A DNA stretch of 32,837 bases from Methanotrichaceae archaeon (GTDB taxonomy: Archaea; Halobacteriota; Methanosarcinia; Methanotrichales; Methanotrichaceae): contig CAWDLW010000033.1 of assembly GCA_963803145.1 (NCBI GenBank), positions 1 to 32,837 of the forward strand, given 5' to 3'. Below the pieces are notes generated by a model. That model was not told the origin of the DNA. It saw nothing but the letters and a program-made list of their open reading frames with translations, and ran no database searches. Below are positions 7,804-26,451 of the stretch, in pieces (positions within the stretch are counted from its first letter, which is position 1; the number at the start of each line of letters is the position of its first letter). Both the position numbers and the translations under genes were made by a program.

Positions 7804-8140
7804 TGATGATAATGTTATTATTATTGAGTAGAATCTTCGAAATTGCTACAATTTCACGAAAGAATTAACAATTCGTGAATGCACCACAGGGATTGTTAAT
7901 CCCATAGCTCCTTTACCTGCAAGCTTGGGGAATCAGGGTAGCTAGGATCTCTTATCGATTAATGCTATCGGAAAGCAATTACCTCTTGGATTGAGGATTA
8001 GTGGATAGTTGGGGTTAACTGATGCCAGACGCTTTCCATTTTGTTACATACTCAGAGGATCTCTCTAATCAAAAGTTCTTGTGATCGATGATTAAGTTAG
8101 GACCGCTATGCATCGATACTTCCGGAACTATCGAAATACT

Positions 8141-8568: not shown

Positions 8569-9130
8569 TACGAGCCTTTCCACCCCAGAAATAATACTCT
8601 CTGGTAGAGTTTTCCAGCCCAGCGTTAACCGTGCTGTAACGCCAGTTTAGTGTCCTGTGACATTGAGGACTGGCTTTAATCCTCCCCGTTTAAACCGTCC
8701 GTCGACGTATAGGAAGTGTGGTGAGGACTTCGCTCCCGACCCCTGGTAGCCCACGCCTATTATAACCCGACATGTAGGGTAGAGATAGATCCAGGTAACC
8801 TATCAAGCAATAAAGATACAACTATAGTATATAAAACTTTTGTTATTTTTAATCGAAAGAGATACATCACTCTCACGCCATAATAGAGAGCCAATCTGAA
8901 TTCTAAGCAGTGGCAATGGTAGAAACAATAGTTGGAACCTTTTTGTGGCGGGCTTCATTGCTACTTTTGCCAAGAAATATATGAGATAACCTTAAGGTAA
9001 TAAAGACCGTGAGTATGCAAATCCAGCGATGAACAACTTAGCAATTGATAATAGCTACCATCTAAATCATCTGAGTTGAAACCGTTTAAGATGCAAGAAC
9101 TTTATATACATAAATGGGAATTTTTGGAAT

Positions 9131-10096: not shown

Positions 10097-10450
10097 TCCT
10101 ATCTCTATTTGGGGAAATTAGAGGAATTGATATTTGCCAAAGCCACACGCTACTGATTATCAATTCACCAAGCATAAGGCAATCGTAGGGCAATTGCCCT
10201 TCGATAGCTGCAGACCTCGAAGCCCAATGAGTGCCCCAATTTCCCCACTTTACGAGGGCCGTTGTCTTGTGAGTATTGGAGCTGGGATATTGTGGCCTTG
10301 GGTACTATAGCGTTGGATCTTGCAGCTTTCAGAATCTTGGGAAAATTGGGAAACTTGATACTGCACATGGTCACATGTTACTGATTATCAATTACCCCAG
10401 GGGTAGGTAAGTTGTGGGGCAGTTGAGGTAGTTGGCTAACCAAAAAAATA

Positions 10451-11196
10451 TCAAAGCGCCAAACACTGCTCATACATCTCTCGTTTTGTTTTATCTGATA
10501 CATGCGCATATCGCAAAGTAGTTCGGATATCGCTATGCCTAAGTATATCCTTAACTATGCGAATATCGCAGCCATTAGCGATCAGGATCGTTGCGGGAGT
10601 ATGTCTAGCGAAAACATGGAGCCCTCCAGGCTTTTCAATTTGTGCCAGATTTTTATATTTCATAAACATTCCGTATAGCTGCAATCTATCTCATCTATTT
10701 CCATAATCCGTATAGAAAAGTGGTTGTCTGCCATTTATTTCAAATAATGGCCGAACCTCTAAATACTGTCTGAGTACGCGAATACACTCATCTTTTAAAC
10801 AGACAATCCCATCTTTTCCGCATTTCCCTTCGCGGACCCTTAAAGTACGCGCATTTAGATCCAAATCTGAATCATCAAGGTTACAGAGTTCACTTGCCCT
10901 TAAACACCCATAAAATAGCGTCATTAGCATAGCATAATGCTTTAGATTATTGCATACGCTGAAAATTTTAATAATATCCTGTTCATCGAAATAATATGGT
11001 ATAGTTTGGTTAAGGGGTTGAAAAGGGAAATTAAATTCCTCGCCAAACATCTTAAAATAATTCTTAAGAGCGATTCCACTGTAGATTCTCTGAATCCTTG
11101 GTCATTCAAGTATTGCCTAAACCTTATCAGATTAGGCATAAAATCCTCGTCCTTGGTGGGCAACTCCCAATTTAGTTTAAGCCTATTTTTAGCCAT
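10451..11196 (-). pseudogene. Tyrosine integrase/recombinase pseudogene, paralogue of 25360-26238
   Basis: LFYGCLRASEL, HVFARH, ILRHSDIRTTLRY catalytic motifs; frameshifting deletion of ~43 codons near 11070 relative to the intact paralogue; W>TGA nonsense at 10691-10693. Confidence 0.9.
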
Positions 11197-11293
11197 TTTA
11201 ACTTCCTAAAGAGGGAGACATTGGCACAAACCTGTCTGCCATAATTTTGAGGTTCACAGGTTTATAGCTAAAATCAGCATCAGAAAGCGGAAA

Positions 11294-11350
11294 ACGCCGA
11301 GGGTGGGATTCGAACCCACGAGCTCCGAAGGAGCACAGGTTTAGCAAACC
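11294..11350 (-). repeat. att site: 57-bp exact copy of the tRNA-Ser 3' half (matches 26336-26392)
   Basis: ACGCCGAGGGTGGGATTCGAACCCACGAGCTCCGAAGGAGCACAGGTTTAGCAAACC is identical at both positions. Confidence 0.97.
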
Positions 11351-11463
11351 AGATAATAAAGCAAGCTTCGCTTGCTTGATGTGCAGTGGCAGAGTTGCCC
11401 GTTTCTCTCTTTTCTATCTAAGAGGCATGGCTAATAAAATATATAGCTTTTGCGGCTAGCTGG

Positions 11464-11805
11464 TTACAGCCCCGTCGCCCCCGATTTTGCAGCTACAAGC
11501 TGCTCCTGCAACCTGTGGACCGCTCGGTTTGAACATACTATAGACCCCTCGCCAGCAATCATCCCGTGCTTCATCAGACTCCCTATAACCCCGCCAACCA
11601 CCTCTGGGGGCAAACCGCAATCGGCCTGAATAGATTCGATCGTCCGGCAGCCATCCAGAGCGCCTAGGAGCGAGTCGAGGCAACCTACGCTTAATGCAGG
11701 TGCTTCAGTAGGCACTACAACAACTTCGGCAACTTCTACGGGCTGCTCGGTCTGTACTTCATTTACTTCTTCTTTTACTTCGTCTTTTATTTCGTCTTTA
11801 ACCAT
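11464..11805 (-). CDS. Hypothetical protein: acidic N-terminal tail plus probable winged-helix domain
   Basis: 113 aa; GTGGTG RBS-like motif and TTTAAA box upstream; TIESIQADCGLPPEVVGGVIGSLMKHGMI resembles a wHTH. Confidence 0.6.
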   Translation of the reverse strand: MVKDEIKDEVKEEVNEVQTEQPVEVAEVVVVPTEAPALSVGCLDSLLGALDGCRTIESIQADCGLPPEVVGGVIGSLMKHGMIAGEGSIVCSNRAVHRLQEQLVAAKSGATGL

Positions 11806-12139
11806 GGTATACCACCACTTAATATCAAGTCAAAGTCATATTTAAACAATCGCTAACAGGAACGAGAAAAAGACAAGAGCCTGCGGTACTTGGCGATAAA
11901 CAAGAAATCAAGGCAAAGACTGGAAAAGCGTGTTTATCAGACAAGGAAATTTTTCGCGTTTTCTATTATAGGAGGTAGAAGAAAAGTGTTTAGATGTTGT
12001 TATAAAAAAAGAGATAAAAGACGAAGGAAAAAAGAAGAATAATAGAAGAAGTATAGAAAAGAAGGAGAAAAAAGAAGTAACAGAATGCATAGAGAAGAAA
12101 AGAAAGAAATAAGGTCGAAAGGTCGTTCCGGCTGCAATA

Positions 12140-12292
12140 CGGCCGCGCGGCGGCCGAGCTACACACGCATGGTTCCCACAGGGGCAGCTGGGGGGGGGTG
12201 CCTGGCAAGGCTTCATGATTGTCGGGCCTTCGGCCTGGCTGCGGCCATCGCTGCTAGGAAACGCAGCGACGACAATCTGAATGCCTTGCCAG
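12140..12292. other. Large fold-back structure (multibranch stem-loop); ssDNA signal or ncRNA
   Basis: CTGGCAAGGC/GCCTTGCCAG, TTCA/TGAA and GATTGTCG/CGACAATC close three inner hairpins; separate perfect hairpin CGGCCGC-GCG-GCGGCCG at 12140-12156. Confidence 0.7.
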
Positions 12293-12336
12293 CATCGGTT
12301 GTTACTAAAAATTTAAACAAAAATATTAGGAGTTGA

Positions 12337-12771
12337 ATGTACATGAAGACCGTATCGATGTTAGTAACAATCGTAACCTGTATAGCAATGTTGGGAATTC
12401 CTGCACTCGCTGGCAATTGGATGAGTGAAGCACATACAATAGTTGACAGCACACCTTTCATAACTGCAAACCCTGGCGAGACAATCACTGCCAAGATCCT
12501 TGATAGTGAACCAGTTTCCAAGATCTCGAGCAACGGCAACGATATGTTTGTTCTCAATGTAACACAGATCAGTGCAGACGGATCTACAGGACCACAGAAG
12601 AAGCTCTACATTGTTAAGATCATAAAGAATCTGACTAGCCAGTTACTCGCAATCGGCAAGGCTCACGATGGCAATCTGGAGAATGTCATAATTGACCTCA
12701 CATATGGCACCTCAACCAAGGGTCAGACTGTAATCACAAAGATGGTTGAGAATACGACGGCTACAACGTAG
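12337..12771 (+). CDS. Signal-peptide protein with a possible OB-fold/SSB-like domain
   Basis: MKTVSMLVTIVTCIAMLGIPALA signal peptide with AxA cleavage site; beta-rich mature part; AGGAG RBS. Confidence 0.7.
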   Translation: MYMKTVSMLVTIVTCIAMLGIPALAGNWMSEAHTIVDSTPFITANPGETITAKILDSEPVSKISSNGNDMFVLNVTQISADGSTGPQKKLYIVKIIKNLTSQLLAIGKAHDGNLENVIIDLTYGTSTKGQTVITKMVENTTATT

Positions 12772-12815
12772 CTGCAATTTTTTTTCCCGCTCAGGCATTA
12801 AAGGAGGCAGTTACG

Positions 12816-13316
12816 ATGAAAATGATTGTTGAAGTACACTCTCCTGTGACACAACCCGCGCAAGCAGTTGTGGAGATGCTTAAAAGCATTGGCAGAAAGT
12901 TCGATCCTCTCCCCGACGCAGTTCACCTACCAGGGATGGCCTTAGTTCTGTCCTCAAAAAGAGACTGCTATTATGCCACGCTCCCATCCACATGCAGTTG
13001 TCCTGCCCGGACATACCATCCAGAAAAGCCGTGTAAACATATGAAGCAGTTTTTCTCTGAAGCTCAGATCCCCAAAAAGACTCTCCTTGAGGCGATGGCA
13101 GAGGAAGGCTATGAAATGAGCTTTGAGCCAGATCCAAAGTATGATCCCAGAGCAAAGATCGAAGCGGCTAAAGCTAAAATTGAGGTGGTAAAGCAGCAGG
13201 CCAGGGCATACCAGGCCAAACAGAGAGAGCTTAGGAATCTTGCAAAGCTTGGATGTGCTCAGCCAGACGGCGAAGAGATTCTGGTATCTGGCAAATTCAA
13301 GCCCGTCCTGGAGTGA
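12816..13316 (+). CDS. SWIM zinc-finger protein with C-terminal coiled coil
   Basis: CSCP-x8-CKH motif; AGGAGG RBS. Confidence 0.8.
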   Translation: MKMIVEVHSPVTQPAQAVVEMLKSIGRKFDPLPDAVHLPGMALVLSSKRDCYYATLPSTCSCPARTYHPEKPCKHMKQFFSEAQIPKKTLLEAMAEEGYEMSFEPDPKYDPRAKIEAAKAKIEVVKQQARAYQAKQRELRNLAKLGCAQPDGEEILVSGKFKPVLE

Positions 13317-13321
13317 TCCAC

Positions 13322-14149
13322 ATGGCTGACATATACACTAAAGTTACAGCCAGGATCATCCAGGCCATGGAAAAAGGAATAGTGCCCTGGAGAAAGCCTT
13401 GGCGAGCTTCCGGACCAATGAATCTAGCCAGCAAGAGGACGTACAGGGGCGTCAACCTACTTTTACTTTCCATCACTGAGTTCGAGAGCCCGTATTGGTG
13501 TTCATTCAAACAGGCCCGCCGCCTGGGAGGGTCTGTTAAAGCGGGCGAACAGGCACAGACGTTCGTTGTGTTCGCTAAAGAAAGCGTGTACGAGGCGGAG
13601 GACACAGATGGTAATAAAGTGGTAAGGAAAGGTTTCGTACTAAAGTATTCACCTATTTTCAATATCGAACAGACCAGTGGTGTTAAGCTCCCAGAGGAGC
13701 CGCCTATCGAGCACGTGGATGCCGAAGAATACCTAAGGAGAGCTACATGTAAGCCCGACATAAGGTACGGCGGGGATAAAGCCTACTACAGCCCAACCAC
13801 AGACCGCATACAGATGCCCACCCGTACTCAGTTCGTCTCCTCTGGGGGCTTCTACAGCACTCTTTTCCATGAGATAGGCCATTGGACAGGCGGCCCGAAG
13901 AGATTGAACAGAAACTTCGAGACCGTGAAAGAGACTAGGGCTAGGGAGGAGTTAACAGCAGAGATGTTCTCCACGTTTGCTCTCAACAAGGTCGGGCTGG
14001 ATGTGACGGTTGAGAATGAAGCAGCATACATTCGAAGCTGGATTCAACCATTGAAGTCAGACCCTCGAGCATTAATTGCCGCATCTCATGCAGCTGGGGA
14101 AGCAATAGAATACTTCGAACGTGGGAAACTCCCAGGAGATGCAAAGTGA
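13322..14149 (+). CDS. ardC: ArdC-family ssDNA-binding antirestriction protein with zincin-like domain
   Basis: GIVPWRKPW, YRGVNLLLL, SFKQARRLGGSVKAGE, FNIEQT, AYYSPTTDRIQMP, FHEIGHWTG, EELTAE, YIRSW; start taken at MADIY behind GGAGTGA. Confidence 0.92.
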   Translation: MADIYTKVTARIIQAMEKGIVPWRKPWRASGPMNLASKRTYRGVNLLLLSITEFESPYWCSFKQARRLGGSVKAGEQAQTFVVFAKESVYEAEDTDGNKVVRKGFVLKYSPIFNIEQTSGVKLPEEPPIEHVDAEEYLRRATCKPDIRYGGDKAYYSPTTDRIQMPTRTQFVSSGGFYSTLFHEIGHWTGGPKRLNRNFETVKETRAREELTAEMFSTFALNKVGLDVTVENEAAYIRSWIQPLKSDPRALIAASHAAGEAIEYFERGKLPGDAK

Positions 14150-14346
14150 GATCGGGCACGAGGGGCTCGATCTGGCACCGATAGTGCTTCGCAGACGACG
14201 AACGAACGGCCAGAGGGGATCAAGGTAGCGGTCCTGCGGGACTTCCCTCGCAATTGCAGAAGCTGCTCGGCGCTACCATGATCACCCTCGGCCTACAAAC
14301 TTTGTAGTGAGGCATACCTGAGAAACATGCCTTGGGGCGAGACTCG
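14149..14346. other. Second large fold-back structure immediately downstream of ardC
   Basis: Long interrupted stem GGCC-GAGGG-GATCA-GGTAGCG / CGCTACC-TGATC-CCCTC-GGCC (14208-14293) with two inner hairpins, plus flanking hairpins at 14149-14173, 14293-14307 and 14310-14332. Confidence 0.7.
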
Positions 14347-14554
14347 GCGTACGATAGAAATGAGCTGTATATTTGCCAAATAATCTTAAATATTTAATAA
14401 CAACAAAATCGCAATGTTTATATGGTCGTATCCAAATGATCGCAAAAGGAGGGTTAATACTAAAAAGGAGCATCGAAATTGTCAGGCATGCAAGATTTGG
14501 TTAATATTATTGGAATATACTTTGACTAGAATTCTGATCACGGAGGGGAATATT

Positions 14555-15340
14555 ATGAGGTTTAGTTTTGCATTCATTTTGGTAATTTTGGTATTGCTAT
14601 GCGTACCAGCATTCGGGCAAACCGCTGATGACTGGTATGATAAAGCGGCTAAAGCCTATAACATGGGTTCATACGATTTGGCCATCAAATATTTTGATAA
14701 GGTTCTGGAGCTAAGACCTTCAGATACAGATGCGTTAACCTACAAAGGCAACATTCTCAATCATCAAGGCATGTACGACGAAGCAATTCAAGCCTATGAT
14801 AGCGCTATTGAAATTAATCCGCAAGATGAATCCGCACAGTTTGGTAAAGGAGTCGCTCTTTCCAATTTGGGCAAGTACAATGTATCAGTCGAATCTTTCA
14901 ATAATGCCATTACGATCAATCCACAGGATGCGGATGCTTGGTATAACAAAGGTATTGCCCTAAATGAAATGGGCAAGTATAATGAGGCCATACAAGCTTT
15001 TGACAACGCTATTACGATTAATCCGCAATTTGCTAGTGCTTGGTATAACAAAGGCGTCATTCTAAAGAAACTGGGCAAATACAATGAGGCAATTGAAGCA
15101 TATGATAACGCAATTGCGATCAATCCCCAAGATTCAAGTGCTTGGTTTGGTAAAGGCAATGCGCTCAGTGATATAAGCAAGTTTGAGGATGCCATTCAGG
15201 CATATGATAATGCCATCAATATTGATCCACAGTTCAAAAACGCCTGGAACAACAAAGGCATTGCACTAAAAGCAATAAATCGAAACAGTGAAGCAGAGGA
15301 AGCCTTCTCCAAGGCTGGAGGGGCCAAGTACACTAGTTAA
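14555..15340 (+). CDS. Secreted TPR-repeat protein
   Basis: Signal peptide MRFSFAFILVILVLLCVPAFG behind GGAGG; ~7 TPRs. Confidence 0.9.
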   Translation: MRFSFAFILVILVLLCVPAFGQTADDWYDKAAKAYNMGSYDLAIKYFDKVLELRPSDTDALTYKGNILNHQGMYDEAIQAYDSAIEINPQDESAQFGKGVALSNLGKYNVSVESFNNAITINPQDADAWYNKGIALNEMGKYNEAIQAFDNAITINPQFASAWYNKGVILKKLGKYNEAIEAYDNAIAINPQDSSAWFGKGNALSDISKFEDAIQAYDNAINIDPQFKNAWNNKGIALKAINRNSEAEEAFSKAGGAKYTS

Positions 15341-15368
15341 TTAAAGAACCAATTAAGGAGGGAAACTG

Positions 15369-16067
15369 TTGAAAATATATTTATTCATCGTTTTGATATC
15401 ATTCGCTGTGCTGTGCGGAATTGTATTCGGACAGACTACGGCACGCGATTGGTGTGAAAAGGGCCGTATACTTTACGAACAGGGCAATTATAGCGAATCT
15501 ATTCAGGCTTTTGATAAGTCTATTGAGCTAAATGGTACCGATTCTCAATTCGCTTGTTATTTCAAGGGAATGGCTCTTGCTGAACAAAGCAAATATGATG
15601 AGGCTATTAAGGCATTAGATAAATCCACTGAACTACGGCCGAGTGATGAAGGAACTTGGATTCTGAAGGGCCAAACTTTGCTCTATCTTGGCGATCTATA
15701 TGATAATATAGGCATGTACAATGAAGCGCTTAAAACCTTCGATAAGGTTATAGAAATAAATTCAAAGTCGCACGACGCGTGGTATTTGAAGGGTCTCACT
15801 TTACACATTCTAGGTAAGTACACTGATGCTATTCAAGCATATGATACGGCTATTCAACTCGCACCTAACGATTCGCACGGATGGTATCAAAAGGGTTATG
15901 CCCTTTCTGATCTTGGCAAATATAACGAGTCCATCAACGCTTTCGATCAAGCCATTAAGATTAATCCACAAAACACACTAGCGTGGATTGGTAAGGGTAA
16001 TTCTCTTGAAGCGCTCGGGAGAAACGCCGAGGCAGCAGCGGCTTTCACCCACTCAAAGAAATCATAA
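15369..16067 (+). CDS. Secreted TPR-repeat protein
   Basis: TTG start behind AAGGAGG; signal peptide; ~6 TPRs. Confidence 0.88.
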   Translation: MKIYLFIVLISFAVLCGIVFGQTTARDWCEKGRILYEQGNYSESIQAFDKSIELNGTDSQFACYFKGMALAEQSKYDEAIKALDKSTELRPSDEGTWILKGQTLLYLGDLYDNIGMYNEALKTFDKVIEINSKSHDAWYLKGLTLHILGKYTDAIQAYDTAIQLAPNDSHGWYQKGYALSDLGKYNESINAFDQAIKINPQNTLAWIGKGNSLEALGRNAEAAAAFTHSKKS

Positions 16068-16086
16068 CACGCAAGGGTGAAGTAGA

Positions 16087-16887
16087 ATGTCTAAACAAGG
16101 CTCATCTAAAAAGAATGTTCGTGAGAGATATGCGAAAACAAAGACAACACTCATTTTATGGCTAATGCTCATGGCATTTTTTATATCAGCTTCAGGGCAG
16201 CAAACTGCCGAAGAATGGCTCAACGAAGGTCTTGCCCTCTACAACCAGAGCAGATACGATGAAGCCCTACAGGCATATGATAAGGCAATAGAGATCGATC
16301 CACAATGCGCTGAAGCGTGGTTTAATAAAGGCAATGCCCTCGATAAACAAAGTGCGTATGAATCGGCCATCAAAGCTTATGAAAAAGCTATCAAGATAAA
16401 TCCACAATTATCTGCGGCCTGGATCAATAAGGGTCTAACACTTAGGCACCAAAGAAAGGCTCGACCACAGACAGGCACCTTCTTAAGGGATACTGCAGAT
16501 CGAACTTGGTTTGGGGAACTCAATGTAATTAACGATAATCCTAAGTTCGATGCTATTGTTGTGTTGACGAAAACCGATAAGGTGCCGCTCATAGCTGTAT
16601 TTATTCGATCTAAAGAGTCTTATAAAATTAGTGCTATACCGACGGGAACTTATTATATTTACTACAAATTGGGTAATATATTTGATAGTACATCTGACGA
16701 GTTCAAAGAAAAAGGGGGCAATTATCGACTGGCTATGCCTATAGACTACAAGAGCACTGTAACCATGGAATCAAATATACAAAAGATTAGATATCCCGCT
16801 TTGACTATGGCTATAGAAGGTTCAGTGCCCAATGGAAATGTCGCCATGAAGAGGATATCGGTGCCTGAGGAGGAGTTCCCGATTTAA
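16087..16887 (+). CDS. Secreted/membrane TPR protein with C-terminal beta-rich domain
   Basis: Hydrophobic segment, 2-3 TPRs, then GELNVIN...AIPTGTYYIYY beta-sandwich-like region. Confidence 0.85.
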   Translation: MSKQGSSKKNVRERYAKTKTTLILWLMLMAFFISASGQQTAEEWLNEGLALYNQSRYDEALQAYDKAIEIDPQCAEAWFNKGNALDKQSAYESAIKAYEKAIKINPQLSAAWINKGLTLRHQRKARPQTGTFLRDTADRTWFGELNVINDNPKFDAIVVLTKTDKVPLIAVFIRSKESYKISAIPTGTYYIYYKLGNIFDSTSDEFKEKGGNYRLAMPIDYKSTVTMESNIQKIRYPALTMAIEGSVPNGNVAMKRISVPEEEFPI

Positions 16888-16916
16888 ACTTTTATGCTAT
16901 TTGCGCCTTTGACGGC

Positions 16917-17239
16917 CTAGGAAAAACTCCCCCCAAAGCTAGATTCACTAAACGCCGACCCGAAAACGCCTTTAACTTGAGCAGTATAAGTCTTGCTTCT
17001 AAGAATACTCTGACTCTCAGTACCGCCAACACCGCCCTGCCCGTCAACATTAACATCACCAACAAGCGCGTCATCCGAAGAGAAGAACCGGATAGAGGTG
17101 GTGTCGCCGGAGACATTTAAGTCATAGAGATATAGCATTGAGAGACCACGAACAGGAAGGTTTTGATACACTGAGTCAACACGGGGATTGGTGTGCCAGA
17201 ATAGCGTGGGGAGAAGAATTTCGTTATCATCGGCCGGGA
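16917..17239 (-). pseudogene. C-terminal fragment of the large adhesin-like gene split by IS200
   Basis: Frame open from the IS end (PADDNEILLPTLFWHTNPRVDSVYQN...) and joins in frame to ...EDAIDLF after IS removal. Confidence 0.78.
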
Positions 17240-17851
17240 GTCAAACTGCGGCGGCGCACCCGCGCAGCAAGCTGCGGGGCATGCGAGGCGCCGCCGCAAT
17301 AGCCCCGCTTATTCAAATTCAAACAGCTTCATTTGATTATAGCTTTCTTTCTCCTCAATCGATCCTTGCCTTTCAATATAATTTCTTATAATTTCAGCAG
17401 TTATACCCTCACCTACGGTACCAATATAGCCACCATCACTCCAAAACTCTCCACCCCAAAGTTGTTTTCTGATTTCAGGAAAGGCTCTGAAAATTTGCCT
17501 TGCAGTTATACTTTTTATAACTTGCATAACCTTAGATGGCGCATATTTTGGCGCTGATCCAACAAAAACGTGGACATGGTCTCCATCTGTCCCAATAGCA
17601 TCAAATTCAAAACAATATCTTTCACCAATCTCAATACATACATTCTTAAAAAGGTCTATCCTTTCCTGATCGATAAGTAATTTCTTTCTATATTTTACAC
17701 AAAGCACCATATGATATCTGATTCTGTAAACACAATGGCTTGCATGCCGCAATTCCAGCATTAATTCAGATAGCGCCTGCTAGAACTAAATACCTTATTA
17801 ATCCCCTGTTAGTTTGCCATCCCCACAGCAAGCTGTGGGGTATTCGTTAAA
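17240..17851 (-). mobile_element. IS200/IS605-family element, tnpA only
   Basis: Subterminal hairpins CCCCACAGC-AA-GCTGTGGGG (17821-17840) and GCAGC-AA-GCTGC inside an 11-bp inverted repeat (17247-17298); inserted 3' of TTTAT, ends in TGAC, no target duplication. Confidence 0.88.
17309..17761 (-). CDS. tnpA: IS200/IS605 Y1 HUH transposase
   Basis: YHMVLCVKYRK, DHVH (HUH), IKSITAR, LWGGEFWSDGGY, IRNYIERQ. Confidence 0.95.
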   Translation of the reverse strand: MLELRHASHCVYRIRYHMVLCVKYRKKLLIDQERIDLFKNVCIEIGERYCFEFDAIGTDGDHVHVFVGSAPKYAPSKVMQVIKSITARQIFRAFPEIRKQLWGGEFWSDGGYIGTVGEGITAEIIRNYIERQGSIEEKESYNQMKLFEFE

Positions 17852-20318
17852 ATAAATCAATCGCATCCTCACCCAGGGGCGGGGTGATGGTGCCATCCTT
17901 GGAAATATAGCGATAAACAGGATGATACATGCCAGTGTACAACCCATATCCTTTACCAGTCCATGTGCAGACGAGCCCGCCCTGGTTATCAAATGACGAT
18001 TGCCCGGCTGTCTGGTTGTATCCAGCGGCTGATTTGCCGGGAGAGAAATTAACTGGCGCTGACCACGCCCCGCCGATTCGGTTAGAGTAATAAACATCGC
18101 CAATCTTAGTATCTGGATCTGACCATTTCTTGTAGAATAAATGCGGAACACCGTTTGCATCTAAAAGCAGGTTGCCTGGAAAACCAACATAATTACCATT
18201 ACCCCCAACGATCTTTTCAATGGCGTTCCAAGTCCCCCCGACGTTGTTTATGTATTGAATCGAACTGAAGTTGGTAAAATCAAACCACGCAACATGGACA
18301 GCGTCATTTTTATCGACATCGAGAGATGGATATCGTGCGTCAATATCGTCGGCGGATAGATCTTCTCTTGCTCCCCACGCGCCGTCTTTCTCCCAGTGGC
18401 AAATCGTGCTGTAATTCGCATGGGCGATATTGACGTTCCCACATGCAGCGACTATATGCGGGTGATCATCCGGGTCGCACAAGACGGTACTTTCGAATGA
18501 CGGATACAATGAATGAAGATCGCTAATGTTTACAGGAACGCTCCAAGCTCCCTCTTTGGGCTTGTACCTATAGAAGACATCTTTACCGAACAAAGAAAGA
18601 TCGAGGTCGCTATTGACTTGCATGAAATACGGGGCAAAATATGCCGGGTAGTTGGAGGTTGCTTCAACATCAGTCACACCAACGCCGTGATAATGGTCAG
18701 TATTTGAAATCCATGCATGACCAGACCAGGGGTATTCGTAATAATCCATACCAGCGGAGCCAACAGCAGGTCCAGTATTACCGGAAAAATTATCGTGAAT
18801 ATGAGTAGTACTGCCGCCAGCATCGGAATAAGAGTTGTTTCCAACAATGCACTTATTAGAAAGTATTCCACTGCTACTGAGATCTGTGGAGAAGAGACTT
18901 GAAAGAACTGATGCGGATAGTATGATAGAATTTGCAGGAAGAGTAGTGATAGGAGACGTGACCAATCCAAGTATAGTATTGTAACTGGGTGGAATATGGC
19001 TGGATGGAGACGAGTTAATACTAAATGGGTGGGTATGGCCGCAGCCAGCAAAAGTATACGAAGGATACATTTCCATCTCACAAGTTAGGCAGCCATCGGC
19101 AGCGGCAAAAGTGCCAGAGAACGTATGGTAATTAGTAGCAGATCCGCCTAAAGTGCCGACTGTATCGCTCCCGAATATGTAATATCCATCCTGGTCTGAA
19201 TATCGAGAGAACCCGGCTGGAACAGCGTTGGTAAACGGAATCACGATGTCCGCAGGAAGAGATGGTGGAATACCTGGATATTTGAGAATTTTCATGGACC
19301 GATATGGAGGAAGACGAGACGCCAAAGACAAACTGACGGGTCCGAATGAAGAATGATGATAACCATGTAACGCAACATATGTGTAATACAAACCGACATC
19401 GTATCCCATATTGGTAGCCCCGATGGAAGCTCCACCCCAATATGAATACGAATGAGAATGATTATTGGCTGATAAATCTGGGCTATACGCGCCAGTACCG
19501 CCTGTCAATATACGCTGATTGGCATTTCCGCCCACACCTGAAACAAGGGTGAACCCGGCAGGAGTGGAAGAACCGCTGAATAACCAATAAGTGTAATCAA
19601 GAACTCCGTCCCACTTGGAATAAGTTATATGAATTCCATCATTTTTATCGACCGTGATGGATGGATTGATATATTCCACGAATGCTTCATCGGAGTCAAC
19701 GATTTCAGAAGTCCAATGTTCTCCACCATCGACGCTTTTGAGGTACACAACCCTATGCCGCCCGGCGATCTTGTAGTTGCATATGGCATGCAAAGTACCA
19801 TCAGATGTCTTAACTAAATGACGAGAAGACACTGGATACAGGACAAATTGAGCCGATCTATTATCAGGAGAATAATTGGGCAGATCGAATGTGGCAGAAG
19901 GTATTATGGTGACATCATCCGGCGCCAAGTCAGTCACATGTGTCTTATGCCACCAATCACTAATACTCTGCTCTTCTGGTTGCTCCAGATCCGTAACCGC
20001 TCCCAGGTCATCAACCCACGGACCGTCACCAACGATGATGGAGACACTGCCGCCACTATGTAAGGTCCTCTTGTGGAGAACTTCGGCTGGATCTAATTCG
20101 GTTTGATAGATAGTTATGGGAACATGGTTTTCATCGAGAACTCGCATATTAGAGATGGGATTTAGTCGGGATTTATCAAGGACAAGAGCAGGGTCGATAG
20201 CCGTCCTGTAGCACGTAACGGGATCACCCGTAGGATTTTCAAGAAGGATTACACTGATGTCACGAGATTCCGATAATGGAACTCTTGCTTTGTTTCGAAC
20301 TTCGAATAGATCGGTCAT
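17847..20318 (-). CDS. Large BNR/Asp-box beta-propeller protein with inserted tail-fibre-like HxH repeats (putative adhesin/receptor-binding protein), truncated by IS200
   Basis: Asp-box SVDGGEHW; repeated PS(I/L)xVDKNDx(I/V)H(I/V)xW/Y blades; three collar/HxH repeats; ATG at 20318 lies 1 nt after the upstream stop. Confidence 0.75.
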   Translation of the reverse strand: MTDLFEVRNKARVPLSESRDISVILLENPTGDPVTCYRTAIDPALVLDKSRLNPISNMRVLDENHVPITIYQTELDPAEVLHKRTLHSGGSVSIIVGDGPWVDDLGAVTDLEQPEEQSISDWWHKTHVTDLAPDDVTIIPSATFDLPNYSPDNRSAQFVLYPVSSRHLVKTSDGTLHAICNYKIAGRHRVVYLKSVDGGEHWTSEIVDSDEAFVEYINPSITVDKNDGIHITYSKWDGVLDYTYWLFSGSSTPAGFTLVSGVGGNANQRILTGGTGAYSPDLSANNHSHSYSYWGGASIGATNMGYDVGLYYTYVALHGYHHSSFGPVSLSLASRLPPYRSMKILKYPGIPPSLPADIVIPFTNAVPAGFSRYSDQDGYYIFGSDTVGTLGGSATNYHTFSGTFAAADGCLTCEMEMYPSYTFAGCGHTHPFSINSSPSSHIPPSYNTILGLVTSPITTLPANSIILSASVLSSLFSTDLSSSGILSNKCIVGNNSYSDAGGSTTHIHDNFSGNTGPAVGSAGMDYYEYPWSGHAWISNTDHYHGVGVTDVEATSNYPAYFAPYFMQVNSDLDLSLFGKDVFYRYKPKEGAWSVPVNISDLHSLYPSFESTVLCDPDDHPHIVAACGNVNIAHANYSTICHWEKDGAWGAREDLSADDIDARYPSLDVDKNDAVHVAWFDFTNFSSIQYINNVGGTWNAIEKIVGGNGNYVGFPGNLLLDANGVPHLFYKKWSDPDTKIGDVYYSNRIGGAWSAPVNFSPGKSAAGYNQTAGQSSFDNQGGLVCTWTGKGYGLYTGMYHPVYRYISKDGTITPPLGEDAIDLF

Positions 20319-20319
20319 A

Positions 20320-20682
20320 TTAAAACCCAGACTGTAGCTTGGGTATTGGATCACCCAGGGGCGCTGGGGCGTCGGGACTCGGGGGAGATACAACTGTTCC
20401 TCCCATCATAACGATTTGGCCACTCGACGGGTCTTTTACGACATACTGGGTGGTGCTCGTGCCGTTAGAGTCGATTGTTGTGCGAACATTTTCTATAGAT
20501 ATATCCCCGAGCCTGCTAAATTGGGGTGTGATATTTTGAGCCTTGAACACTTCAGCTATATGCGCCCTGATGTTATCAGTTATATTTTTCGAAGGCGCAG
20601 CATCGCTTGTGCTGTTAGTCTCCTGTGCCGATCCGGCTGCTAGCAAGCCCGCCAGCAGCACCAATGCCAACATTGTTTTCAT
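20320..20682 (-). CDS. Small secreted protein
   Basis: Signal peptide MKTMLALVLLAGLLAAGSAQ; AGGAG RBS; N-glycosylation sequons; Pro-rich tail. Confidence 0.75.
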   Translation of the reverse strand: MKTMLALVLLAGLLAAGSAQETNSTSDAAPSKNITDNIRAHIAEVFKAQNITPQFSRLGDISIENVRTTIDSNGTSTTQYVVKDPSSGQIVMMGGTVVSPPSPDAPAPLGDPIPKLQSGF

Positions 20683-20939
20683 TTTTTCTTCAACTCCTAT
20701 CCATTATCATGTTCCAATTCAACTGCCAACAACAAAAAATCAAAAATCGAGGGAAACCCGCTTCGCGGGAGCCCTATAATAGGAAACGCCGGAAATACCC
20801 AAAATTTGATCAAAGGTAGGTATAGAATCATCGCAAGCAGTAGGTTAATTAATATCACGCAACCCCTAGACGAAAGATCCTCACCCAGCCCGACGAACGA
20901 TCTTGGAGAGAAATCGGCATCATCCGACCCGTTAGAGGT

Positions 20940-21234
20940 GTTTACACAGGCCGTTTTCGCTATCATCAGACGCTGTTTACAACGTGTTAACATGAAGTTT
21001 ACTTTGAAAACCGATATCGGACGGATCTGTTTACCAAGTTTACCTGTTTTTGACACATATACACTAATATTCTCATTTTTTCTCGCCCCTCCCCCAGGGG
21101 AGAGGGCGGCGCCCTGAGTTATACTGTTATACTGTATATATGTATTAAATATAGGTAAACTAGTAAACACCGGGTTAACACGTAACGTTTTTTCCGATGT
21201 AAACACCCGGTAAACAGGAGTAAACAGGGTAAAC
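20940..21234. other. Putative replication origin with inverted iteron arrays
   Basis: 5x GTTTAC (20940, 20975, 20997, 21029, 21038) and 6x GTAAAC (21155, 21163, 21199, 21210, 21220, 21229) flank a GC hairpin and an AT-rich tract, directly downstream of the primase-helicase gene. Confidence 0.8.
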
Positions 21235-21239
21235 ATGCC

Positions 21240-23870
21240 CTACGCCTCCTGTTTCCACTCGGCTACAAGCACCTGCTCCAGCCCCGGCGCCCGCGCTTCC
21301 TGGGGGATCGGCGCCCGGAGATGGAGATAAAGCTGGGTCGTCCTGCTGCCACATCCTACATGGCCCTCGTCGGAATCTTCACTAACTTTCTCCGTGAAGA
21401 AGTTCGGACACTTGGACGACAAACCGCCATCACTGTTTCGCCCATTAATAAGCTGTGAGAGACGAGATTTTGTGATATCCATCTTTTTCCAGGCATCTTT
21501 GTAAGAAATACTACAGCCATGGTCGCTCACGATCTGTAGAAGTTTAAGTTCCTGTGACGAGAGTTTAGTCCTCATTTGCTGGTGGATATGCATGTACAGA
21601 GCTAAAGCATCTGAGAAATCTTGTCGGACTGCTGTTACCCTGATAATGCCGTTCGGGTCGGTCGAATTCTCTCTGACGCGGTAGCGCATTACTGCAAATG
21701 CGTAAATCAGATCCATGAAGATGTTAAAGTTTCTAACATTGGCCCGCCCGTTATTCATCTCTTTCCAATCAATTCTCTTGTCCGCATCGGGTATTGTCAC
21801 TATATATCGATTTGACTTCAGCTTTTCAAGGCAGCACCGGCAGACAGCAATATCCGGGTCGGTAGAGGGTGTAACACCAGTTGAAGCTCGTTCGAGGGCA
21901 TTTCTTATAATATTTTTGTCTCTTTCAAGACTACCTTTAACTTCCAACATCAATGTCCTGTTCAAGACTTCTGCCTCATCCTTGCTATCCACCTGGGTGC
22001 TGACGATCTGCACGCCGGGTGGTATTTGGGCCAAGAAAGCATCCTGCTCAGCGACAGTCTTGTAACTGTAACCGTTCTTGAAGTTGGTTTGGTTTCTTTT
22101 AAGGACATCGGCCAGCCTATCACTAGGCCGATTATCGTCGAGGATAACCATCATACCAGAGAAAATACTTTTTCCAGCATGATACAACAAGGCCATAGGG
22201 CTCATACCGGAGACATCTACCCATCGGCCCATTTGTTCGGCCGCTGTCAATACCGCGTGACTTTTCCCATCCCCCGAGTCACCATTCACTTGAATTACTG
22301 CTATGCCCGTGCTGTTTTCGATGTTAGCAGACAGGTTTGCAGCTAAAAGTGATGTAGCAATATGCTTGTCCTCTTCATGCCTTCTATTGTATACTTCAAC
22401 CCAAAATTCGGGGAGAGTGCAATTATTTAGTATCTCTTCAGCCTTAGTTTCGATATCTTCATCGAACTTTTCAGGCTCAAATTTGACTTCTTCATTAGCT
22501 CCCAGCGCCTTCTGGGTGGGTTTGAACACATGCGTTACTTCATTAACGTCTACACCGAGCTTGAGGAGCTGCTTTTCGTGCTTTTTGGCAATACGGTAAG
22601 CTGCTTTTTCTTCCTCTTCAGAGAAGTCCTCGCTGAGGATTTTATCTATCAGGTCTTTATAATTCTCGATATCCCATTTGGAGAAGCCTTTTCCATCTTT
22701 ACTCGTAGCACCATCACACTGCCTGCTGAGAGCCCTGAAACAGCTAATTACCGTTACCCCCGTGGGAATGACTGGGCGCTTGAGTTCCGCTACCTGCTCC
22801 TCAGTGACGTATCCCAACTCCAAGGCAGCATCTACAGCATCCCAATACTTCTTCCCCCGGAGAGCACCGCTACCAGCTTCTTCCCATTTGATGATGCCCT
22901 TCATGCAGGCGATAAAATCCAAAGGCGACCCGCCCCGGTTCAAGCCATCGTGCATGTAGGCCCAGCTATTTTTCTCGATGTTTACGAGAAGATTATGACC
23001 CGAGCTGCTTCCGAGGGTAGGATGGGGTCCCGCCAACTGCCCTGATTCCGTGTGCCAGTCCGGGCCGGTAGTGTCGATAACTTTCAGAATATCAATGTGA
23101 AGAGTCTTCTGAGGCTCCGCCTCCACATCCTGGGGGCGCGGCTTCTTCCTTTCGGCCTCTAAATCCTCAATGGTCTCTGTGCCGAAAACCTTAATTTTAA
23201 AATCTCTTATGGCGCAATGTATGACCGACTCGAGACCAAGGTAGCAGTTTGGGTTGTCAGGGAAGGAGAGTTCGGGGATCTTTTTGCCTGTGAAGACGAG
23301 AAATCTGGAGCCGATGCCTTTCTTGGTAGTCTCATTATAGACACCACCTTCATACAGCTCTACGCCGTTAAATCTGGCCTTTTCGCCCTTTATTTTTATT
23401 ATGTTGGCCTTACACTCATCAGAAAGATCATCTGGACCTTCAAAAACGAATTGATGAGAAGCAGTCAGTTTGGGGAGACCTGTAGTTGGTGCGATGAATC
23501 GCAGGCCACATTGAGAGGAGGAGTACTCTGTATATATGGGTTCAATCTTCTTTATGATATCAGCCGCGAACTTTCCTATCTCTCCTGTTTCTGGATTTAC
23601 GCAGCAATCAATGTCTCCGCCGACGAAGCCCTGACCATGCTTCATCAACATGCCAATGCCGGTGCACTTGCGGTTCTTTTCTCTGATTTCTAATGCCTCG
23701 TCAAAGCCTAGCCATCCCTTCGGGTCCTGCCAACCACTGAGAGTGAAGCCCTTGCCGCTTTTGTTTCTAACAATTGGATTCTTCTTACCGTCAAAGCATA
23801 GTGCCCACTGAGGCAGCTTTTTGATTAGATCCGGTAGTTGGGAATAGTCGGTCATCTTACATGCTGCCAT
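21240..23870 (-). CDS. Bifunctional primase-polymerase (AEP) fused to P-loop helicase and C-terminal wHTH; replication protein
   Basis: QW..K.P..W..F..A..GIG..GGDIDCC, YTEYSSSQCGLR, VELY..RF..TG prim-pol motifs; Walker A GDSGDGKS, Walker B VILDD, LNR arginine finger. Confidence 0.88.
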   Translation of the reverse strand: MAACKMTDYSQLPDLIKKLPQWALCFDGKKNPIVRNKSGKGFTLSGWQDPKGWLGFDEALEIREKNRKCTGIGMLMKHGQGFVGGDIDCCVNPETGEIGKFAADIIKKIEPIYTEYSSSQCGLRFIAPTTGLPKLTASHQFVFEGPDDLSDECKANIIKIKGEKARFNGVELYEGGVYNETTKKGIGSRFLVFTGKKIPELSFPDNPNCYLGLESVIHCAIRDFKIKVFGTETIEDLEAERKKPRPQDVEAEPQKTLHIDILKVIDTTGPDWHTESGQLAGPHPTLGSSSGHNLLVNIEKNSWAYMHDGLNRGGSPLDFIACMKGIIKWEEAGSGALRGKKYWDAVDAALELGYVTEEQVAELKRPVIPTGVTVISCFRALSRQCDGATSKDGKGFSKWDIENYKDLIDKILSEDFSEEEEKAAYRIAKKHEKQLLKLGVDVNEVTHVFKPTQKALGANEEVKFEPEKFDEDIETKAEEILNNCTLPEFWVEVYNRRHEEDKHIATSLLAANLSANIENSTGIAVIQVNGDSGDGKSHAVLTAAEQMGRWVDVSGMSPMALLYHAGKSIFSGMMVILDDNRPSDRLADVLKRNQTNFKNGYSYKTVAEQDAFLAQIPPGVQIVSTQVDSKDEAEVLNRTLMLEVKGSLERDKNIIRNALERASTGVTPSTDPDIAVCRCCLEKLKSNRYIVTIPDADKRIDWKEMNNGRANVRNFNIFMDLIYAFAVMRYRVRENSTDPNGIIRVTAVRQDFSDALALYMHIHQQMRTKLSSQELKLLQIVSDHGCSISYKDAWKKMDITKSRLSQLINGRNSDGGLSSKCPNFFTEKVSEDSDEGHVGCGSRTTQLYLHLRAPIPQEARAPGLEQVLVAEWKQEA

Positions 23871-24159
23871 CTTGACTCTCCCCCATTCTCAAAACTGACT
23901 CAGTGTATTCTGCGGTGTTGTTGATGTCGTGCAATTTTACGTTGGCCCAACCTGTTTTTTCGACTTCAGCAGTAACGAAATATTCACTGCTATCAGTGAG
24001 ATGGCAGCGGCTCAAGTTTCCATCTGCGATCAGGAGAGACACAAGCACATCCTCGGTGATCTTGAGACGCTTGCGCAGGCGGTTAAGGCGCGAGACAAGC
24101 TCTCTTTTCGAGAGCTTTAATTCAGACAAAATGATTTTTTTCTCGATATCATCGTCCAT
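23857..24159 (-). CDS. Hypothetical protein (coiled-coil N-terminus)
   Basis: Overlaps both neighbours in an operon; GGAGG RBS before MDDDIEKK. Confidence 0.6.
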   Translation of the reverse strand: MDDDIEKKIILSELKLSKRELVSRLNRLRKRLKITEDVLVSLLIADGNLSRCHLTDSSEYFVTAEVEKTGWANVKLHDINNTAEYTESVLRMGESQDGSM

Positions 24160-24760
24160 CGCCCTCGCCTCCCTCCAACATTTTTTGAACTCTTTTTTGC
24201 ACAGCCCCTTCGATATCGACAATATCAATTAACGGAGCTGGGAGCGCGAGAGACTTGATTTCGATTCTTTTGCCGTTTTGAAGAAATATTTCCTCGACGG
24301 GTAGGGCGAGAGCTTGCGCTTTCTTGGCAAATTCAGGTGTGCAGAGGCTGAAAACGATTATTCCATTGGCGCCCGTCACGATTTCCTCCTCGCATCTATC
24401 GCATCGATGGATGAAAAACTGACTTTTTGGGGCGCAGTAGATACGTTCGAACTTGCCGCCGCAAACGCAATTGCCATTTTGGGCGAATCGGTATAAATTC
24501 AGGTTAGAAAAGAATTTACCCTGGACTATCGGGGGCTGAACTTCTAGTGGTACTTTTTTCGCGCCCATTTCACATCCAGCACCTTTGACCCAAGTTCCTG
24601 TGAAACGTGTTTCTGAAGGGACTTCGTTTTCTGAAGCGTGTTTTGAAGCGTGTTTAGACTGGTCTGGAGCGAGTATATTTGGAACCAACCTGTCGCCCGG
24701 TGTTGCTTTGTTTTCGGAATTTTCAGAAAACTTTATCTCTTCAGAAGTAGATTTATCCAT
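24149..24760 (-). CDS. Hypothetical zinc-ribbon protein
   Basis: CVCGG...RCDRC motif; start at MDKSTS is uncertain (ORF open from 24841). Confidence 0.6.
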   Translation of the reverse strand: MDKSTSEEIKFSENSENKATPGDRLVPNILAPDQSKHASKHASENEVPSETRFTGTWVKGAGCEMGAKKVPLEVQPPIVQGKFFSNLNLYRFAQNGNCVCGGKFERIYCAPKSQFFIHRCDRCEEEIVTGANGIIVFSLCTPEFAKKAQALALPVEEIFLQNGKRIEIKSLALPAPLIDIVDIEGAVQKRVQKMLEGGEGDGR

Positions 24761-24868
24761 GGAGCATCGCCCCGACACGTTGAATATGCTTGGTCGAGCC
24801 ATCTGTCCTGGTTGTGTTCCTGCTCTCGGAATAGGCTGCAACCGATCCGAGGGCGCCTGATTTTTCTA

Positions 24869-25030
24869 TCATGTTCCTGCCTCGATGCCCCTTTCTATTA
24901 GTGTTCGAATAGCGGTGCTCTGTGTAACGTTTTCTTCTGCCATCATAGCCTCAATTTTATTGAGGATACTCCGTGGCACGTTCCCTTGGATATGGTTTGA
25001 ACAAGGGTCTTCCTTTTTCGGTCTAACCAA
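24869..25030 (-). CDS. Ribbon-helix-helix (CopG-like) regulator, 53 aa, not in the ORF track
   Basis: TTG start: MVRPKKEDPCSNHIQGNVPRSILNKIEAMMAEENVTQSTAIRTLIERGIEAGT; GGAG RBS and TATAAAA box upstream; first gene of the replication operon. Confidence 0.75.
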   Translation of the reverse strand: MVRPKKEDPCSNHIQGNVPRSILNKIEAMMAEENVTQSTAIRTLIERGIEAGT

Positions 25031-25359
25031 AGTTTTTCAACTCCGTGGGTTTTATAATACATATTACAATTGCCAACTATTTAATAGTTTTCCTTCCATT
25101 TGGTTTATTACTGTCAGATATATTGACCCATATACGCATATTTAGTGGAAGTCTTTAATTTTATTGTCGAAACACGTTTTACCTTTGTGCAGCATTGGTT
25201 TAAATTGTTGTCCAGAAATTGAACATTTTTGCGCTTTGCTTTATCATCATCATCGTCGTAAATCATATTGGCATGCTGATCAGGTAGATTCATTGTAAAC
25301 GCGACTTTATGGCGAGATACCCGTCGCCCGTATAACCGGTCTGTTTTCCACCTGATAAA

Positions 25360-26238
25360 TTATACACGGAGGCATTGGTCATATTTCTCCCTGAGAACTT
25401 TATCGCCGAGGTGGGAATATCTTAGCGTAGTTCTAATATCGCTATGCCGGAGGATCTTCTTAACCATCAATAAATCGCAACCATTAGCGATCAGCAGGCT
25501 AGCAGCGGAGTGACGGGCAAAAACATGTAGCCCGCCAGGTTTTTCAATGCCTGCCGACTTTTTATATCCCATAAACATATGGGCCAAGCTCCTTCTATCC
25601 CACCTATTTCCATAATCTGAAAAAAATAATGGCTTTCTGTTATCTATCTCCACAGGCGGGCGAACTCCCAGGTAGGTGCGGAGTATATGGCAGCAACTAT
25701 CAGAGATAAAAACAAGTTGTTCCGGCCCCGATTTAGTCTCTTTTAATCTTAGCGTTTGATTCTTCAGGTCCACGTCGGGCAAATCCAACCCGCACAGCTC
25801 TGAAGCCCGGAGACACCCGTAAAAGAGCGTGTTCAGCATCGTATAATGTTTCAAATTTACGGCAGAAGCCTCAAAGATCTTCAATATATCTGAAGCCCCG
25901 AAGTAATATGGAATACGGCCAGTAGGGGGAAGAAACGGAAAGTGGATCTCTTCGCCGTTCATCTCGTAGTACCGTTTGATAGCACCACAAGTGTTATTGA
26001 TAGTGCTTCTTGCTAAATGCCTTTCAATGAGAGTCTGACGATATTCATTGAAGTCATTGATGGACGGGCGGTCTGTCCCAACATGCTTGAGATACCTACG
26101 GACCCGGTCAACATGTGATAAAATCGTAGATTCCTTAAATCCATGGTCTTCGAGAAATCGTTTATATCTTATTATAGCGGGGTCAACGCATTCAGTTTGT
26201 GGTACTCGCCCCCAGTCTATGGCAAGTTTCTTTTTCAT
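25360..26238 (-). CDS. Tyrosine integrase/recombinase (XerC/D-like, with SAM-like N-domain)
   Basis: LRASEL, KETKSG, HVFARH, LRHSDIRTTLRY; adjacent to the tRNA att site. Confidence 0.95.
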   Translation of the reverse strand: MKKKLAIDWGRVPQTECVDPAIIRYKRFLEDHGFKESTILSHVDRVRRYLKHVGTDRPSINDFNEYRQTLIERHLARSTINNTCGAIKRYYEMNGEEIHFPFLPPTGRIPYYFGASDILKIFEASAVNLKHYTMLNTLFYGCLRASELCGLDLPDVDLKNQTLRLKETKSGPEQLVFISDSCCHILRTYLGVRPPVEIDNRKPLFFSDYGNRWDRRSLAHMFMGYKKSAGIEKPGGLHVFARHSAASLLIANGCDLLMVKKILRHSDIRTTLRYSHLGDKVLREKYDQCLRV

Positions 26239-26336
26239 AAACCTCTCCTGAAAAGAGAAATGGGGGCAACCCTGTCACCTCTCACTAACACCCAGATGAA
26301 AGGCGGGGCGCCATGCGCGTAGCGCATGGTGATTTA

Positions 26337-26421
26337 CGCCGAGGGTGGGATTCGAACCCACGAGCTCCGAAGGAGCACAGGTTTAGCAAACCTGCGCCAT
26401 ACCAGGCTAGGCTACCTCGAC
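26337..26421 (-). tRNA. tRNA-Ser (GCT)
   Basis: Cloverleaf: GTCGAGG acceptor stem, anticodon arm CAGGT-TTGCTAA-ACCTG, long variable arm, GGTTCGAATCC T-arm; CCA not encoded. Confidence 0.97.
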
Positions 26422-26451
26422 ATTAAACAATAGAGATAGAATTTTTCGATA

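Follow-up and report, generated by a model that had tools for sequence, protein, structure and literature searches.

A putative integrative plasmid with defined ends at a tRNA-Ser gene of a Methanotrichaceae archaeon

Contig CAWDLW010000033.1 of the Methanotrichaceae archaeon assembly GCA_963803145.1 (4.13 Mb in 51 contigs; genome G000, contig C33) was analysed over its whole length of 32,837 bp, which we refer to as the window. Between two copies of a 57-bp direct repeat it carries a mobile element with a unit size of 15,042 bp, or 15,099 bp when both attachment (att) copies are counted, located at the 3' end of a tRNA-Ser(GCT) gene. We consider it probable, at about 0.6, that this element is an integrative plasmid of a type already known from archaea that sits in the chromosome and is now decaying. 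Its predicted genes would provide for integration, replication and protection of the DNA on entry into a new cell, and no transfer or packaging machinery was recognised among them. The features that define the element and its replication module are the following, in coordinates of the window.

11294-11350, no strand: distal att copy, 57 bp equal to the 3' part of tRNA-Ser
20939-21235, no strand: candidate replication origin, GTAAACA repeats around an AT-rich stretch, directly downstream of rep
21240-23870, minus: replicase (Rep), 876 aa, with a primase-polymerase (prim-pol) domain at residues 6-229, an MCM-like AAA+ domain at about 460-768 and a winged helix at about 769-860
23857-24228, minus: orf123, member of the rep operon, no known family (Pfam and relaxed Pfam)
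24149-24841, minus: orf230, zinc-ribbon-like by sequence pattern
24869-25030, minus: ribbon-helix-helix (RHH) gene, CopG-like, 53 aa, head of the operon (PHROG matches)
25360-26238, minus: tyrosine integrase, intact, adjoining the tRNA gene (Pfam, PHROG and NCBIfam)
26336-26422, minus: tRNA-Ser(GCT); the proximal att copy is made up of its 3' 57 nt (26336-26392)

Integration site and replication module

An earlier first-pass annotation, made from the sequence alone, had described perfect att repeats and an intact integrase, and both descriptions hold. The two repeats (11294-11350 and 26336-26392) are identical at 57 of 57 positions and are the only copies across the 4.13-Mb genome; no older third copy was found in the window, either with a 19-nt core at up to three mismatches or by short BLAST. 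Because the right copy is itself the 3' part of the tRNA, the tRNA-Ser(GCT) gene remains whole. The integrase has a stop-free frame of 292 aa that matches PF00589 with an E-value of 8e-28 (profile positions 10-168 of 172) and a XerA-type NCBIfam model with an E-value of 6e-40. The right flank carries a CBS-domain gene and the genes for both phenylalanyl-tRNA synthetase subunits. This synthetase and tRNA-Ser(GCT) each occur only once in the genome, which places the contig in the chromosome. The G+C content is 45.6% in the element, 45.4% in the genome and 39.4% in the left flank.

In the proposed life cycle, the integrase would recombine the two att copies and so release a circle. Run X1 (7% of sampled words) was the sole run found to contain pieces of the element; these were scattered, 151-244 nt long and 100% identical, and no att joint was present among them. 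No RNA data sets containing element sequence turned up.

Replication appears to be encoded by an operon of four tightly packed minus-strand genes (RHH, orf230, orf123 and Rep) that point away from the integrase. The assignment of the RHH gene comes from weak CopG-like PHROG matches (E-values from 6e-5 to 8e-3), and a TATA-like sequence, ATTATAAAA, can be read approximately 25-30 nt upstream of its TTG start. CopG represses its own operon in pRN-type plasmids, and the RHH protein may act on its own operon in the same way. For orf230, no relative was found in the databases searched and no usable Atlas match was obtained.

The Rep protein has no Pfam match of its own (no D5_N and no DUF927), while its N-terminus resembles phage primases (PHROG 1829, E 4e-11). 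Full HMMER scoring returned 2354 representatives at E <= 1e-3, with identities of 45-61% in the helicase half and of 30-34% at most for full-length relatives; 7 of 15 scanned relatives carry Prim-Pol, NrS-1 HBD, D5_N/DUF5906, DUF927, DUF3987 or DUF6009. Domain identity was assigned with an AlphaFold model built from 20 sequences (mean pLDDT 76). Residues 6-229 align with the NrS-1 prim-pol (6a9w) with a Z-score of 16.7 and a root-mean-square deviation of 2.7 over 173 aligned residues at 22% identity. For residues ~460-768 the top ten rows are all MCM AAA+ cores (Z 17.1-19.6, 251-287 residues aligned), followed by the next unrelated AAA+ protein at Z 14.1, SCCmec Cch at 10.9 and SaPIbov1 Rep at 9.5, and residues ~769-860 match winged-helix regulators at Z ~9. 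A Walker A motif, GDSGDGKS, is present in the sequence, and G530 is invariant in 20 relatives. These structural matches point to a Rep that fuses prim-pol, MCM-like helicase and winged helix; by its modelled fold the helicase appears MCM-like rather than of superfamily 3.

The candidate origin lies directly downstream of rep. Eight of the 12 GTAAACA copies in the window fall within its 297 bp (chance alone would give 2.8 copies over the window's full length), arranged as three inverted repeats, then the AT-rich core, then five direct repeats. This layout is as expected of a putative iteron-type origin, at which Rep would bind the repeats, melt the AT-rich core and prime synthesis. A 179-aa open reading frame (ORF) covering the region is probably spurious. 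The RHH-led prim-pol/helicase operon with iterons predicted at first is therefore present in its modules, but the origin is placed downstream of rep and not beside the RHH gene.

The large propeller gene and its homologues on putative viral contigs

The largest gene of the element is found in two parts on either side of an insertion sequence (IS).

16917-17240, minus: detached C-terminal part of the propeller gene, ~107 codons (homologue alignment)
17239-17855, minus: IS200/IS605 insertion, ~617 bp, with tnpA at 17309-17761 for a Y1 transposase
17847-20393, minus: N-terminal part of the large beta-propeller gene, an 848-codon frame; the likely start at 20318 gives 823 codons

Compared with full-length homologues, the large protein is missing its last ~110 residues, and these are encoded in the same orientation at 16917-17240. 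The transposase between the two parts matches PF01797 (E 2e-33) and NF033573 (E 1e-39). Two more copies of the IS, 100% identical over 617-619 bp, occur on contigs C13 (56915-57531) and C15 (364878-365496) and set its ends in the window at ~17239 and ~17855; in run X1, contigs with the IS in other flanks likewise stop matching at 17239/17240. Identical copies in other flanks imply that the IS is active and inserted here recently. With its largest gene split by the IS200, the element is not intact, and the first-pass annotation of it as complete has to be withdrawn. Long residence in this host is indicated by the G+C content, which matches that of the genome, together with the hit by an active IS200. 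Relatives of the IS at 69-80% identity are present in many genomes of the family, and its terminal ~60 nt are often conserved alone at 90-98%.

The modelled large protein (mean pLDDT 69, with residues 1-162 below 50) forms a beta-propeller with inserts at residues ~135-823. Its best solved matches are CylK (Z 27.4), bacterial lectins (~24), a glycoside hydrolase and an ulvan lyase (~23) and sialidases (~21). In Foldseek searches sialidases rank first in the PDB, and phage proteins come first in the viral library, including Pas29 of phiAsp2, gp427 of phage G and the K1E endosialidase tailspike. A single Asp-box-like sequence, SVDGGEHW, is visible. Sugar binding or cleavage by the propeller is plausible from the modelled fold.

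We found 14 full-length homologues of 930-979 aa with 38-44% identity, mostly on putative viral contigs of 67-80 kb. Three loci come from IMG/VR (contigs of 67.6-69.4 kb) and 11 from JGI metagenomes, on contigs that include 71.3, 69.1 and 69.4 kb, the last being one of the IMG/VR records; members of the homologue cluster lie on contigs of 74-80 kb. Hydropathy predicts neither a signal peptide nor a membrane segment in the large protein. Because of this, and because its family is mostly found on these large contigs, the protein looks virion-type rather than like the cell adhesin for which it had been taken.

The putative viral genomes in this group, 67-71 kb long with cluster members reaching 80 kb, are G125 (loci L025-L028), L023, L024, L029 and L033. 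G125, the single genome analysed from end to end, has genes for PolB, a helicase, primases, a dCMP deaminase and several HNH endonucleases. Only replication genes were recognised in it, with no capsid, portal or terminase (67 ORFs against PHROGs; 24 ORFs, drawn from locus L022, and 31 further ones against Pfam), and Terminase_6N and the HK97 capsid were each found in 0 of 3 IMG/VR records. What is labelled the 'terminal repeat' of G125 consists of 66 bp of (ACCAGC)n, which makes its completeness label weak, while the recurring contig size suggests near-complete genomes.

Locus L038 differs in being a second integrated context: archaeal chromosomal genes are followed, at 7821-11241, by a tRNA-Leu(TAA), two tetratricopeptide repeat (TPR) genes and then a homologue of the large protein cut at the contig end. 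This homologue is the closest one (46%), and the two TPR genes resemble those of the window. Parts of the L038 chromosomal stretch are 82-84% identical to the genome studied here, and the tRNA-Leu is 98% identical. In a tree of 25 sequences, a quick one that left out L036 and two duplicates, the window and L038 proteins group with an SH-aLRT support of 83 and, together with P0006, with 95, apart from the other 22. The clade suggests, on sequence grounds, a long association of this gene with small elements. Compared segment by segment, the window protein is conserved relative to the other homologues to about the degree seen within that set. Over its N-terminal 60 residues it shares 48% identity with the viral copies, which reach 54% with one another. 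Searches for the large protein in further genomes gave little: with one genome per species none of 20 pattern matches was confirmed, and 100 family genomes gave only two partial or weak matches.

These observations bear on whether the element could be a virus satellite, that is, a plasmid-derived hitch-hiker comparable to pSSVi/pSSVx or the haloarchaeal SRCEs and carried in the virions of 67-80 kb helpers, with its own propeller placed on the helper virion and setting host recognition. The phage tailspike-like and other phage proteins among the fold matches, the missing signal peptide and anchor, the conserved N-terminal 60 residues and the separate clade of element copies would all agree with it, as would the replication gene content of the large contigs. 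According to a recent preprint, a plasmid replicon combined with an incomplete virion module is the signature of archaeal satellites (10.1101/2025.02.15.638363). The link to the large contigs is nevertheless narrow: the large gene is the only gene in common, besides weak prim-pol similarity, and no non-coding DNA that might serve as a packaging signal is shared. No virus, spacer or prophage ties the viral contigs to this host or to 104 family genomes, where a search with part of one viral genome as query gave only short matches outside repeat arrays. Neither a capsid nor a terminase gene is recognisable on the large contigs, which makes a virion location of the protein itself putative, and the propeller gene is now broken. 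The helper-dependent satellite, one of two options put forward by the first-pass annotation, retains one gene in common with putative viral contigs, but no helper has been linked to the host, and we think it rather unlikely.

A more specific version, to which we would give slightly less credence, holds that the window and L038 elements form a methanogen satellite lineage whose own helper-compatible propeller, a receptor-binding protein or depolymerase, retargets undescribed archaeal viruses of 67-80 kb. Before the SRCEs, the only archaeal satellites known were pSSVi and pSSVx, according to the same preprint (10.1101/2025.02.15.638363). Archaeal satellites that bring their own host-recognition protein are not known to have been described.

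Cargo genes, older insertions and related elements

The remaining genes of the element are cargo or lack a known family, and they bear on two further explanations.

11464-11805, minus: orf113, acidic N-terminal repeat, helix-turn-helix-like C-terminal half, no family match
11806-12336, no strand: divergent intergenic region, ~530 bp between orf113 and orf144, with a purine tract and a hairpin
12337-12771, plus: orf144, no known family, N-terminal hydrophobic segment at residues 1-28
12816-13316, plus: orf166, zinc-finger-like (CxC...CxH) by sequence pattern, with a 51%-identical homologue in locus L043
13253-14149, plus: ArdC-like gene with ArdcN and MPTase-PolyVal domains and a HEIGH motif; likely start Met at 13322
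14414-15340, 15369-16067 and 16087-16887, plus: three TPR genes with N-terminal hydrophobic segments
20320-20682, minus: orf120, small protein with a signal-like N-terminus, overlapping at its end with the start of the large gene

The ArdC call was correct: the protein matches PF08401 (E 2e-27) and PF18818 (E 2e-35), and its HEIGH sequence fits the HExxH motif. Together with the zinc-finger partner encoded by orf166, this anti-restriction-like protein would protect DNA entering a new cell. The three TPR proteins are predicted to be secreted, although TPR3, whose C-terminal half is not TPR, has an N-terminal segment below the hydropathy cut-off. Four proteins in total have N-terminal hydrophobic segments above that cut-off, so that of the at least five signal or anchor proteins counted originally, four pass it and a fifth (TPR3) falls short. 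orf113 is possibly a regulator or excision factor, judging by its helix-turn-helix-like half.

The large fold-back structures reported before are real in comparison with shuffled sequences. The divergent intergenic region has a purine-rich tract of ~110 nt (about 12000-12110) followed by a GC-rich compound hairpin of ~100 nt (about 12196-12296), and positions 12100-12330 fold with a z-score of -5.4 as RNA and -5.8 as DNA; positions 14150-14420 reach -3.5. A strongly structured intergenic stretch just upstream of the orf144-orf166-ArdC block, along with the ArdC-like gene, is what an element transferred as single-stranded DNA by mobilisation or conjugation might use for single-strand entry. The ArdC family, however, is also PHROG 7245 of double-stranded DNA phages, so ArdC alone is no argument for such transfer, and the hairpin has no conserved counterpart ahead of the matching cassette in L043 (z 0.27). 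Virion, relaxase and type IV secretion system families, and specifically capsid, terminase, portal, VirB4/VirD4, coupling protein and pilus families, had no match among the element ORFs (17 searched with Pfam, 17 with PHROGs and 14 with NCBIfam), in agreement with the first-pass annotation. With no relaxase, coupling protein, VirB4 or pilus match in the three libraries, single-stranded transfer is very improbable, and the ArdC gene can no longer be taken as its sign.

Six ORFs of the element have no known family, and nothing credible emerged for eight family-less ORFs when the Pfam search was relaxed to E-values of up to 5. Archaeal virus capsid proteins are often invisible to profile searches, and the element might then be a cryptic or defective provirus of an undescribed small archaeal virus, with a capsid protein among orf144, orf120, orf113, orf123 and orf230 and the propeller as its receptor-binding protein. 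Two small proteins do have signal-like N-termini, and spindle-shaped viruses have large glycoside-hydrolase-like adhesins, according to 10.1101/2025.02.15.638363. By hydropathy only, a crude measure, no ORF of at least 50 aa has a second hydrophobic segment or one at its C-terminus, which leaves neither the two hydrophobic helices of spindle-virus capsid proteins nor the signal plus C-terminal anchor of pleolipovirus spikes. There is also no packaging ATPase besides the Rep helicase, and no candidate structural gene is common to the related Rep elements in 20 neighbourhoods. We therefore regard a provirus as improbable.

The left flank adds an older layer at the same tRNA gene.

1867-2679: family A DNA polymerase, two fragments
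3176-5350: HD-CE protein
5426-6364: DDE transposase
6526-7803 and 9131-10096: TPR genes, with a DUF5615 fragment between them
10451-11196, minus: decayed sister integrase, outside the element and abutting the distal att copy, with one stop and one frameshift

The decayed integrase, which had been missed before, is 72% identical to the intact one in DNA and 62% in amino acids over residues 86-290. Its position outside the left att copy marks a tandem integration site, and the element is the younger of at least two tandem insertions at tRNA-Ser(GCT). The left stretch, with a G+C content of 39%, is probably made up of one or more older elements at this tRNA. At locus L058 of the same genus (12828-15157), two tandem integrases, 42-45% identical to that of the window, lie beside a Prim-Pol/D5_N/DUF5906 replicase, which suggests that tandem integration is common in the group. 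Three further integrase paralogues (45-47%) are found elsewhere in the genome studied here, without Rep, ArdC or the large gene.

Of 61 related genomes, 25, this one included, have a relative of Rep (22-34% identity), and 20 neighbourhoods of these relatives were fetched, many of them on short contigs. An integrase is near Rep in four of the 20 (L042, L048, L056 and L058), TPR genes in four (L048, L049, L051 and L052), an orf166 homologue together with an ArdC-like gene in one (L043), and the large protein in none. That the modules co-occur in related elements is therefore borne out for integrase with Rep, Rep with ArdC and Rep with TPR, and these combinations appear to form a mosaic family of integrative plasmid-like elements in Methanotrichaceae. 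No close copy of the element is present in 104 other family genomes, where DNA-level matches are limited to its IS200 and TPR portions. L043, an 8.9-kb contig from a family relative, carries at 2044-8738 a Rep, the orf166 homologue (51% over 79 aa), an ArdC-like metalloprotease and a DUF1699 gene; the zinc-finger/ArdC pair may be a conserved cassette. A 914-aa protein of L042 was considered as a relative of the large protein and rejected as unrelated (profile probability 1.5%). A DUF3800 gene is located at 30695-31333 in the window, past the phenylalanyl-tRNA synthetase genes, and a DUF3800 gene in L042 (16723-17352) adjoins the integrase of a Rep element.

Comparison with known systems and significance

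The pTN3/TKV-type and pT26-2-type elements of Thermococcales and Methanococcales are integrative plasmids with a tyrosine integrase and MCM or prim-pol replicases. The element resembles them in layout, with integration at a tRNA 3' end, an intact integrase, a size in the range of 10-25 kb, a replicase of the MCM/prim-pol world, mostly orphan cargo and no recognisable capsid or conjugation genes. It differs in that its Rep is a three-domain fusion, its host belongs to a mesophilic, acetoclastic-type methanogen family, and its cargo includes ArdC, secreted TPR proteins and a virus-type propeller. With the pRN family and pSSVx/pSSVi of Saccharolobus it shares an operon led by a CopG-like RHH gene and ending in a prim-pol/helicase/winged-helix replicase, although the helicase is MCM-like here and of superfamily 3 there; pSSVi also integrates into a tRNA gene. 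In pSSVx and pSSVi the viral gene is a fusellovirus ATPase, whereas here it is a large propeller and no helper is known. Two papers describe pSSVx as having genes of viral origin and spreading with a helper virus (PMC4158269, PMC1635272).

The satellite idea is not new for small prim-pol elements of methanogens. Makarova et al. 2014 proposed such integrated elements as satellite viruses, and they are, like the element studied here, small, integrated in methanogens, equipped with a replicase of the archaeo-eukaryotic primase (AEP) superfamily and with virus-shared genes, and devoid of capsid genes (PMC4158269). They differ in their Rep family, arCOG07809 with a superfamily 1 helicase, and in sharing ORFs with fuselloviruses (PMC4158269). 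Within the host family, plasmid pH6Ac of Methanothrix harundinacea 6Ac (NC_016637) has an RHH gene and a large Rep that matches the central domain of the Rep described here (40% over 122 aa, residues 237-358), and its DUF1699 is also found in the related integrated loci L042 and L043. It is, however, a free plasmid of 12 kb whose annotation shows no integrase, ArdC, TPR or propeller genes, and only this one domain is alike. The P4 satellites and phage-inducible chromosomal islands (PICI) likewise combine an integrase, a prim-pol/helicase and an adjacent origin without a full virion module, but they come from Bacteria, and neither a helper nor homologues of their regulatory, capsid-redirecting or packaging genes were found for the element.

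Several points weigh against an integrative plasmid as the full description. Neither a circle nor an empty site was seen in run X1, with its 7% of sampled words, and the activity of Rep, the function of the origin and regulation by the RHH protein are predictions. A plasmid also leaves the retention of a virion-type gene unexplained, and the propeller gene is about as conserved as its viral homologues and recurs with TPR genes at L038. The six family-less ORFs leave room for hidden functions. We still find an integrative plasmid the most probable identity of the element.

Methanothrix-type methanogens are major methane producers in digesters and sediments, yet their mobile elements are hardly described, and a literature search found no papers on integrated plasmids of this group. 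The locus offers a clean example with defined ends, and its candidate origin and replicase could seed a genetic vector for a group that has no tools. It also points to uncharacterised putative viruses of 67-80 kb, tied to it by one conserved gene. If the element does prove to be a satellite, it would extend virus-satellite biology to methanogens.

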